From positions 1 through 10,361 of IMG/VR virus record IMGVR_UViG_3300047160_029729: DNA of 10,361 nucleotides; one strand, 5' to 3'. Source of the DNA: a virus. Shown in pieces: positions 8,663 to 9,249 of this stretch (within the stretch, counting starts at the first letter, position 1; each line of letters opens with the position of its first letter). The translations under genes were made by a program, and so were the position numbers. Below the pieces are notes generated by a model. The model made no database searches. It was not told the origin of the DNA and saw only the letters and a list, made by a program, of their open reading frames with translations.

Positions 8663-9249
8663 GCCAGCTCAAGACCTACGACAGGCCGCTGAGTCTCCAA
8701 GACGAAAGGCTATCATGGCCCTTTTTCGTCATTGATGACGATGGCGTCGTGCAAACAGAGCCCGACCCCGAACCCGTCTTTGCACCCGGCGTCTGGGTCA
8801 CCCACCAGACCCTGGCTGGCCTCGGCATCATCGTTGCTATCAACGATGACCAGATGTCAGTCTTGTGGTCGGTGCAGCCCAACAACCTTAGTGCCTTCAG
8901 CAGCATCGCTTTCCCGCTGGTTCGTCGGGTATTCACGCCGAATCTCGCCCAACAGCTCATCCAAGTCCAGCCAATGACAGCACCAGTGGGCGGTGTTTTC
9001 TACATGGACTACACCTACGGTGACCAACTTGAGAAGCGGTGCACCACTGGCCCGTGGTGGAGTAGACTTTTTTGGAGGGCTTGGCAATGCACATCTGGCA
9101 AAACCCAATCATGGTGGCGGTCTTTCTGCTACTGGGTGGCCTCGTTTTCTACCAAGAAGTCATTCACAAGCGACAACAACGACGTCGCAAGGCAGAAGCT
9201 GCTCGAAAGGTGGACCAAGCGCCTCCCGCCCCCTGACTGCGGCCCCTAG
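8647..9249 (+). CDS. Hypothetical protein, with its N-terminal domain paralogous to ORF 7549. The 3' third (from ~9050) is Trp/Arg/Ser-rich and may not be genuine coding sequence; see the embedded small ORF 9087..9236
   Basis: The ORF-track start is GTG 8647. The alternative GTG 8659 has the better RBS (GGGAGG 8648-8653, 5-nt spacer). The paralog motif is VFAPGVWVTHQTLAGLGIIVAINDDQMSVLWS. The tail ...GPWWSRLFWRAWQCTSGKTQSWWRSFCYWVASF looks out-of-frame-like. Confidence 0.45.
   Translation: MGGTVSQLKTYDRPLSLQDERLSWPFFVIDDDGVVQTEPDPEPVFAPGVWVTHQTLAGLGIIVAINDDQMSVLWSVQPNNLSAFSSIAFPLVRRVFTPNLAQQLIQVQPMTAPVGGVFYMDYTYGDQLEKRCTTGPWWSRLFWRAWQCTSGKTQSWWRSFCYWVASFSTKKSFTSDNNDVARQKLLERWTKRLPPPDCGP
9087..9236 (+). 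CDS. Candidate small membrane protein (49 aa): MHIWQNPIMVAVFLLLGGLVFYQEVIHKRQQRRRKAEAARKVDQAPPAP. It has one TM helix plus a highly basic C-terminal tail. It is absent from the ORF track (<60 aa)
   Basis: A GGAGGG SD (9074-9079) lies 7 nt before ATG 9087, the best SD in this part of the window. There is a clear hydrophobic helix IMVAVFLLLGGLVFY followed by KRQQRRRK (positive-inside topology). The ORF lies entirely within the dubious tail of ORF 8647..9249 in another frame, and GC3 alone does not discriminate the two readings. Confidence 0.35.
   Translation: MHIWQNPIMVAVFLLLGGLVFYQEVIHKRQQRRRKAEAARKVDQAPPAP

Follow-up and report, generated by a model that had tools for sequence, protein, structure and literature searches.

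In tiny viruses, the complete nesting of one gene within another, out of frame, is well documented. Gene E of phiX174, which lies inside gene D, and gene L of MS2 encode overprinted single-gene lysis proteins that lyse on their own, and both phages, with a single-stranded DNA and a single-stranded RNA genome, respectively, are subject to strong genome compression. Among large double-stranded DNA (dsDNA) phages we know of just a handful of nested cases, the classic one being Rz/Rz1 of phage lambda. Here, the spanin gene Rz1 is embedded out of frame within the spanin gene Rz; Rz is a membrane protein, Rz1, encoded in the +1 frame, is a lipoprotein, and both act together in lysis. Gene callers exclude such nested out-of-frame genes by design. 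Overprinting in viruses is the subject of reviews (PMC8227390, PMC3494269). The present study concerns a putative nested gene pair in a stretch of viral DNA of 10,361 nucleotides (nt; IMG/VR virus record IMGVR_UViG_3300047160_029729, positions 1 to 10,361), referred to as the window, in which a short gene predicted to encode a membrane protein of 49 amino acids (aa), gene B, is located in the 3' third of a longer gene, gene A.

The A/B pair resembles Rz/Rz1 in that a small envelope-targeted gene is positioned wholly within a longer same-strand gene of a dsDNA phage, in another frame and with its own ribosome-binding site, and is missed by gene callers. In addition, as in the spanins, embedded and separated layouts occur among relatives (here locus L178 versus 12 other loci). 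Unlike Rz1, however, B is predicted to be a single-pass protein with N-out/C-in topology and is encoded in the -1 frame, A represents a soluble protein with a capsid motif, and no lysis genes were found nearby (three loci). With the phiX174 and MS2 lysis proteins, B shares the short length, an N-terminal transmembrane (TM) helix, a basic C-terminal part and an out-of-frame position within a gene related to structure or assembly. In contrast to these, B occurs in a lineage of phages of >300 kb without compression pressure, displays no sequence similarity to E or L and also exists as a stand-alone gene, so that an origin by overprinting is not required. The arrangement is alike, with a small envelope protein nested out of frame, but A/B shares neither sequence, frame relationship nor context with Rz/Rz1 or phiX174 D/E.

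The initial annotation, made from the sequence of the window, had proposed that ATG 9087 starts a 49-aa protein preceded by a GGAGGG Shine-Dalgarno (SD) sequence at a distance of 7 nt. Re-reading of the open reading frame (ORF), the SD sequence and the spacing showed these to be correct: the ORF extends from ATG 9087 to the TGA ending at 9236 and translates to MHIWQNPIMVAVFLLLGGLVFYQEVIHKRQQRRRKAEAARKVDQAPPAP, and its frame is closed just upstream by a TAG at 9063-9065. Also the proposed order of a TM helix followed by a cationic tail held, as the best 17-residue Kyte-Doolittle window reached 2.05, a net charge of +7 was calculated for the 15 residues that follow, and the flank on the N-terminal side is neutral. 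A count over all six frames of the window gave 53 ORFs that start with ATG and comprise 40 aa or more, among which B was the only one to combine a hydrophobic helix with a subsequent positive flank. The overlapping long ORF had been described as W/R/S-rich in this region; it reads W/R/S/C/F-rich across B because the hydrophobic NTN codons of B, read one base later, become TNN, and its composition is thus a by-product of the helix.

The two-frame layout was compared across 12 loci (the window, L003, L004, L006 and L008-L015), which share 39-64% identity in A between pairs. The 11 loci beyond the window originate from independent ENA, JGI, Logan and IMG/VR assemblies, L015 being from IMG/VR. Each of the 12 loci contains, in the -1 frame of the A tail, an ORF of 49-110 aa starting with ATG. 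Its product begins with a short polar N-terminus, followed by a proline, a hydrophobic helix spanning 17-20 residues (hydropathy 1.96-2.70) and a C-terminal flank with a net charge of +1 to +7. Even the copies that have diverged furthest, with A tails that resemble each other in little but composition, keep this architecture (...EPALQILVVLLFAAVVAQ... in L006, ...KTFIVVIGILGALAIWQ... in L009 and ...VSFWFIVAFFVALLVVE... in L012). The start codon of B, read as A TG in the frame of A, is invariant in the 12 loci, and the A-frame codons that contain it encode Q, R, L, K, S or T followed by C or W. The upstream sequence CTGGAGG is present in six of the 12 loci; the window has TTGGAGG, and weaker variants occur elsewhere. 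In 11 of the 12 loci, a stop codon in the B frame is located 3-8 codons upstream of the ATG, provided by NGT A[AG]N (TAG or TAA) despite varying A residues. The wobble T of the NGT codon is invariant at this stop, though the A residue varies between S, R, G and C. The conserved upstream stop may block the production of N-terminally extended B. No conserved RNA structure was found around the B start or masking its SD sequence. Both frames are open over the overlap in all 12 diverged loci. The conservation of the ATG, the SD sequence and the TM helix of B, in most copies accompanied by a positive C-terminal flank, supports one of the two options raised initially, i.e., that two proteins are encoded in overlapping frames, and we consider it very likely that B is a real gene.

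An alternative would be that only A is real and that the 49-aa ORF arises as a by-product of the W/S/C/F-rich tail of A, as TNN codons read one base earlier give NTN, without encoding a functional protein. Off-frame conservation is to be expected from a constrained primary frame, the chance of an open B frame given the A protein amounts to 0.13-0.35 per locus, and no B family exists in Pfam, PHROGs or NCBIfam. However, the joint probability of the open B frames is about 10^-8, assuming independence of the loci, and the ATG is invariant and the SD sequence conserved while the surrounding A residues vary. The length of the helix, the flanking proline and glutamine and the mostly positive C-terminal flank are maintained in divergent copies with dissimilar A tails, and the second codon position of A loses its constraint over the helix. 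Furthermore, B stands alone where A is truncated, and its called relatives share a C-terminal motif that the frame of A reads as non-conserved sequence. We regard it as highly improbable that B is such a by-product.

The other option raised initially was that the long ORF truly ends earlier and has been extended by a frameshift or a sequencing error. An assembly indel, e.g., in the run of six T residues (T6) at 9068-9073, or programmed -1 frameshifting could join the N-terminal part of A to the TM helix, giving rise to a single membrane-anchored fusion. Such a protein would have a tidy domain-linker-helix architecture, and the T6 run is located between the B-frame stop and the ATG, so that one extra T would fuse the frames. 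However, the same frame relation occurs in the 11 further loci of independent assembly without the homopolymer: the corresponding position reads CTC TTC, ATG TTC, CTG TTC and the like in the same frame arrangement (for L003, ctcttctggaggg). The layout of these 11 loci and the lack of T6 conservation refute an error as the cause of the long ORF. An X XXY YYZ heptamer was detected neither in the A frame of the window nor as a conserved element in the homologs, no conserved downstream RNA structure was found, and the conserved ATG, SD sequence and upstream in-frame stop point to independent initiation; in addition, B is a separate ORF in L178. As T6 is not conserved and neither an in-frame heptamer nor a conserved structure is present, error and programmed frameshifting were both rejected, and a fusion protein is extremely unlikely.

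B was also found apart from A. In L101 and L178, which represent the same phage (a 72-kb IMG/VR viral contig), B forms a separate, non-overlapping ORF of 59 aa, and A is short and degenerate, with an N-terminal part that is split by a stop codon and an end that reads YTYGGETPDSVK before the stop. Directly after the stand-alone B, at positions 2775-3143 of L178, lies an ORF with Cys-rich, HNH-like motifs (..CxxC..DHDH..N..), whereas in other loci the next gene (MPTSRPRENPYKPGDIVSM...) comes immediately, without such an inserted ORF. It is possible that this ORF is a homing endonuclease linked to the uncoupling of A and B. With regard to ancestry, either B stood alone and A was later extended over it, or the overlap came first and was uncoupled in L178.

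Profile searches with B recovered the stand-alone copy of L101/L178 (P0016), three B copies that had been called where A was uncalled, on contigs with B within 300 nt of the 5' end, and, from contigs as long as 351 kb, called proteins with lengths of 54-67 aa. When 1.84 billion representatives were searched exhaustively with a profile, only 14 proteins were returned at E<=1e-3, 13 of which are 49-73 aa in length; 12 of these 13 have a hydrophobic N-terminus, and RRTDPVWKDRG(T/S)L forms the end of most. The 14th match, P0029, is an unrelated 809-aa repeat protein with some ten copies of IDPEWKERG(R/K)ALTT, and its resemblance to the C-terminal DPVWKDRGTL of B may reflect chance or a shared short linear motif. 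Most of the called relatives of 49-73 aa end in the conserved peptide RRTDPVWKDRGTL, and so do the overlapping copies of L004, L008, L010, L011 and L014, in which the A frame is poorly conserved at this position. The B protein of the window ends in ..RKVDQAPPAP without this motif, as is likewise the case in L003, L006, L009, L013 and L015. It was assigned to the family based on its N-terminal 30 residues and on the position it shares with the five motif-bearing overlapping copies, and it displays the N-terminal traits of the family, i.e., a short neutral or acidic N-terminus and one TM helix preceded by a proline, at a length within the range of 49-77 aa. In all 31 family members examined, the best 17-residue hydropathy is 1.96-2.84. 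The proline before and the glutamine after the helix are nearly invariant, and the net charge of the N-terminal flank is 0 to -2 throughout. The C-terminal flank ranges in net charge from +1 to +7 among the 12 overlapping copies and from -3 to +6 among the called relatives.

No match to the B family was obtained in Pfam, PHROGs, NCBIfam, PDB or GTDB genomes, and a literature search for the motif was empty. By tblastn (query P0018), the family was absent from 50,697 deposited phage records. Scanning a closer B alignment against viral contigs gave no further loci; the divergence within the complete B alignments was too high for pattern searches. A degenerate DNA pattern for DPVWKDRG identified one viral contig (L178) and, in GTDB genomes, chance matches only. 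Among 19 B members, a single one matched an Rz-like PHROG, below the threshold (E 0.017). B thus represents an undescribed small protein family. The stand-alone copy in L178, the called relatives and the long frame being open in 12 of 12 loci with its own C-terminal motif lend further support to two proteins.

The extension of A over B had been regarded as dubious in the initial annotation, which proposed to check whether A homologs stop near residue ~135. They do not, and the label turned out to be too strong. The A homologs (n=12) comprise 116-229 aa, and nine of them 196-229 aa, keeping the length of about 200 aa including the W-rich tail, which aligns in homologs (RCTxGPWWxRxFWRAWxCTSGKTQSWWRSF...) together with the C-terminal motif. 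Full-length A homologs combined with a small frame free of constraint had been named as the finding that would refute a second protein; full-length homologs were indeed found, but the small frame is conserved as well. Across all of B, the A frame is open in 12 of 12 loci, the chance of which, given the B protein and determined by resampling of its synonymous codons, is 0.24-0.76 per locus with a summed log10 of -3.5 if the loci are taken as independent. Near the C-terminus of A, a KLVEKW-like motif (KLLERW, KLVEKW, ALVDKW, AIVDEW, RLIEKW and others) aligns in the A frame in 11 of 12 loci, with a BLOSUM62 score per site of 1.82 compared to 0.23 in the B frame, and the motif is also the top shared 10-mer, in the A frame, of an alignment-free comparison. 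In L009, the B frame is already closed at the position of this motif, and the third frame contains stops in five loci. As the frame is open in all 12 loci and possesses its own conserved C-terminal motif, the extension of A is probably translated, and we lean towards it being under selection as well.

The variability of the codon positions switches along A. In regions that belong to A only, the second codon position is the least variable (0.22), followed by the first (0.31) and the third (0.50), and in the conserved A-only stretch at 9031-9065, in which a Cys and a Gly-Pro are conserved, the BLOSUM62 score per site is 3.81 in the A frame versus 0.76 in the B frame. Over the helix, the second position of B is the least variable (0.25-0.41), and the second position of A (0.34-0.50) has lost its constraint. 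Just upstream of the B ATG, all three codon positions are unusually quiet, which fits a translation-initiation region laid over coding sequence. In the three closest pairs of loci, 22 changes leave the B protein unaltered but replace a residue of A, compared to seven in the reverse direction; Nei-Gojobori proportions of non-synonymous and synonymous differences, calculated over 27 codons, contained too much noise to tell A from B. The constraint on the overlap hence appears as a mosaic, in which B dominates the helix, A the KLVEKW-like motif, and B again RRTDPVWKDRGTL where this is present. With dominance alternating along some 150 nt, the overlap constitutes a clean test case for the sharing of constraint between frames.

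Several observations weigh against coding in both frames. The open-frame statistic of A is moderate, and the loci are phylogenetically related. The alignment of the KLVEKW-like motif was built on the A frame and is thereby biased, for which the alignment-free comparison controls partly. Over the helix, the amino-acid conservation is about equal in the two frames (1.87 for A and 2.05 for B), and in distant pairs the counts of synonymous and non-synonymous changes are mixed between the frames, as is expected because first-position changes swap hydrophobic residues. With respect to B, the copy in the window is devoid of the family's hallmark C-terminal motif and may be reduced or decaying, and the stand-alone status of P0017-P0035 rests on the behaviour of gene callers. 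With respect to A, the AlphaFold2 confidence is low for the tail, and relatives and paralogs without the tail exist (L017/L099, L016/L096, L098, L178 and the 116-145-aa paralogs in L004), which end 8-40 aa after YxYG. In L178, the frame of the A tail is still open across the stand-alone B though it is no longer part of A, due to either an intrinsic tendency of the frame to stay open or a recent uncoupling.

The points concerning A, together with its per-locus open-frame chance, would be compatible with B alone being functional in the overlap, with the 3' extension of A being translated or kept open for a non-protein reason, such as the delivery of ribosomes to the next gene or a recent read-through past a lost stop near residue ~135. 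Over the helix, the tail of A is a low-complexity W/S/R sequence, as expected from the NTN codons of B, and the stop codon of A lies within few nt of the next start in L004, L008, L010, L012 and L014. In the window, however, the two are 42 nt apart, so that tight coupling fails here; moreover, the frame of A is open in all 12 diverged loci and its C-terminal motif is conserved in 11 of them, including L009 with its closed B frame. A non-protein role of the extension therefore appears unlikely, though by no means negligible. A genuine same-strand nested gene pair with both frames coding remains the probable explanation of this locus, as judged from comparative sequence data.

In such a nested pair, translation of A would proceed through the beta domain and the capsid-type motif and continue to the stop codon via a W/R/S-rich linker and a C-terminal helix with the KLVEKW-like motif. 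B would be translated from the same polycistronic mRNA by independent initiation, with GGAGG-N7-ATG as its own start signal, and both products are presumably made. The 49-aa product of B, consisting of a short neutral N-terminus, one TM helix and a basic tail, would insert in N-out/C-in orientation; this topology is predicted because the short N-terminus is uncharged and the C-terminal flank positive, according to the positive-inside rule for membrane-protein topology. The predicted cytoplasmic tail, which in most relatives ends in the conserved 13-residue peptide, suggests docking of a partner. We tentatively propose for B the role of a membrane anchor or adaptor, the tail of which would dock a partner from the phage or the host. 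This partner might be A or one of the proteins encoded by the SPFH, vault-like and AAA genes nearby. A role at the host membrane or in exclusion seems rather unlikely, and a role in lysis timing as a holin or antiholin is still more doubtful. With holins and antiholins, B has in common the small size, the TM helix and the charged C-terminal tail, and a likeness to holins, antiholins or toxins had been pointed out at the outset. This likeness received no support from the context: in three long syntenic loci, the annotation shows no endolysin domain over a distance of ~10 kb. Lysozyme, amidase and peptidoglycan hydrolase domains were likewise absent among the called genes within ~10 kb in L003, L004 and L006, a weak negative given that most genes there have no Pfam annotation. 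No match to holin families of Pfam, PHROGs or NCBIfam rose above noise, and, to our knowledge, a conserved extreme C-terminal peptide such as that of the B family is not a holin feature.

The example demonstrates that a nested gene can be supported by comparative evidence alone, here a dozen diverged genomes, one natural uncoupled variant and a family without an entry in Pfam, PHROGs, NCBIfam or PDB. It further implies that annotations of jumbo phages miss real small membrane proteins.

While the ORF of A, as mechanically delimited, begins at GTG 8647, its true start is most likely GTG 8659, because homologs begin with MSxLKTYDR and this codon has its own GGAGG at 8650-8654. GTG 8659 overlaps the stop codon of the upstream ORF 8399-8662 as GTGA, suggesting translational coupling of A with this ORF. 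The small beta domain at the N-terminus of A (Table 1) was assigned with confidence. Residues 83-128 match positions 3-48 of 376 of Pfam PF07068 (Gp23; E 3.8e-8), and the same segment matches PHROG 138 (major head protein) and, by tblastn, capsid genes of jumbo phages. Like gp23, A thus contains about 45 homologous residues of the conserved N-terminal motif; unlike gp23, it comprises 196 aa instead of 400-630 aa and is devoid of the remaining capsid fold. When all window frames were searched by tblastn with two full capsid proteins, no other part of a capsid protein was recovered. The assignment of A as a T4-type major capsid protein was rejected based on its length and the restriction of the match to profile positions 3-48, and a capsid gene split by an intron or a mobile element was also rejected, since no intron was identified with Rfam (E<=1) and no further capsid sequence in any window frame. 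Therefore, A does not represent a capsid protein; it combines a small domain with a peptide derived from the capsid protein. One source labels a 218-aa A homolog (P0005) as 'Major capsid protein Gp23', which is misleading because the Pfam match spans just ~45 residues of the capsid N-terminal motif; the 'major capsid protein' label on the gene family of A is hereby corrected.

Table 1. Features of the A/B locus and of neighbouring genes in the window.
Feature	Position	Strand	Remarks
Gene A, 196 aa from GTG 8659	8659..9249	+	Gene B lies within its 3' third
Small beta domain of A, N-terminal (PGxWVTHxxxGGxGxVVAINDDQxxVLWS)	8659..8892	+	Common to paralogous small ORFs, e.g., window 7549-8043
Capsid-derived segment of A, from the N-terminal part of T4-type major capsid proteins (AFSSIAFPLVRRVFTPNLAQQLIQVQPMTAPVGGVFYMDYTYG...)	8893..9030	+	Pfam, PHROG, tblastn
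A-only conserved stretch (..RCTTGPWWS)	9031..9065	+	Last codons create B-frame stop TAG 9063-9065
T6 homopolymer run	9068..9073	+	Not conserved; not a slippery site, not a source of an indel artefact
Shine-Dalgarno sequence GGAGGG of B	9075..9080	+	7 nt before ATG; A frame reads Trp-Arg
Gene B, 49-aa single-pass membrane protein (predicted)	9087..9236	+	-1 frame of A, wholly inside A
TM segment of B (NPIMVAVFLLLGGLVFY)	9102..9152	+	Hydropathy
Poly-basic tail of B (HKRQQRRRKAEAARK), predicted cytoplasmic	9165..9209	+	Without the family's terminal RRTDPVWKDRGTL
Conserved C-terminal motif of A, ARQKLLERWTK (KLVEKW-like)	9187..9219	+	A frame; overlaps 3' end of B
Stop codon of A, TAG	9247..9249	+	13 nt after stop of B, 42 nt before next gene (ATG 9291)
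Vault-shoulder + vault-repeat protein	141-2447	+	Domain matches
SPFH/Band-7 protein	2524-4437	+	
AAA ATPase	4557-5783	+	
M24 peptidase	6819-7556	+	
Run of small ORFs		+	

The N-terminal beta domain of A (PGxWVxHxxxGGxGxVVAI..VLWS) is shared by tandem paralogs encoding small proteins. Members were identified at 7549-8043 and 8659-9249 of the window, at 3058-3495, 4819-5169 and 5166-5801 of L004, at 2155-2700 of L009, at 1107-1445 of L098, at 1648-2241 of L178 and at 8411-8725 of L003. In most of the paralogs examined, the domain is fused to a differing short piece of a T4-type major capsid protein: the capsid N-terminal motif (residues ~49-176 of the major capsid protein) in gene A, a middle segment (~259-306) in L004_3058 and L009_2155, and the C-terminal ~50 residues (453-506) in L004_4819, L098_1107 and L178_1648. 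The paralog at 7549-8043 of the window is homologous to those with the middle segment, yet shows no direct capsid match. The overall picture is that of a capsid protein as if cut up, with every piece placed on one shared handle, and this family of capsid-fragment fusions may be a more surprising lead than B itself.

Based on these paralogs, A and B might be viewed as a co-evolving unit, in which the tandem capsid-peptide fusions would act on capsid assembly, e.g., as assembly chaperones, decoys or capsid-targeted cargo, and B would tether or time the member with the N-terminal motif at the inner membrane. Owing to the overlap, A and B would in this case necessarily be inherited and expressed together. 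We consider this a speculative and improbable scenario, which, if true, would make the unit an undescribed capsid-assembly control module of giant phages.

All convincing genes of the window are carried by the + strand. Metagenomic contigs with lengths of up to 341 kb carry homologs of gene A within the same order of genes, and the block of genes for a vault-shoulder/vault-repeat protein (768-907 aa), an SPFH/Band-7 protein, an AAA ATPase and an M24 peptidase, located at 141-7556 of the window, is conserved in L003, L006 and L007. The syntenic contigs of up to 341 kb also encode eIF-1a-like, Cpn60, Metallophos and T4_Y16D proteins. Based on the gene order and the eIF-1a-like, Cpn60 and T4_Y16D genes on these contigs, the window therefore originates from an uncultured lineage of jumbo phages (>300 kb). 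Whole-window megablast against the 50,697 phage records gave no match at the DNA level. A scan for promoters and terminators, which was uninformative, gave no matches within the A/B unit. A 6-bp GC-rich inverted repeat (GCGGCC CCTA GGCCGC) at 9239-9254 spans the stop codon of A; no U-tract follows, and the terminator scan made no call there. The SPFH protein of the window is 55% identical to its counterpart in the 642-kb uncultured phage LR756502, in which neither A nor B is located near the SPFH gene. The position of a vault-like gene adjoining an SPFH gene, as found in the window, is unusual for a phage.

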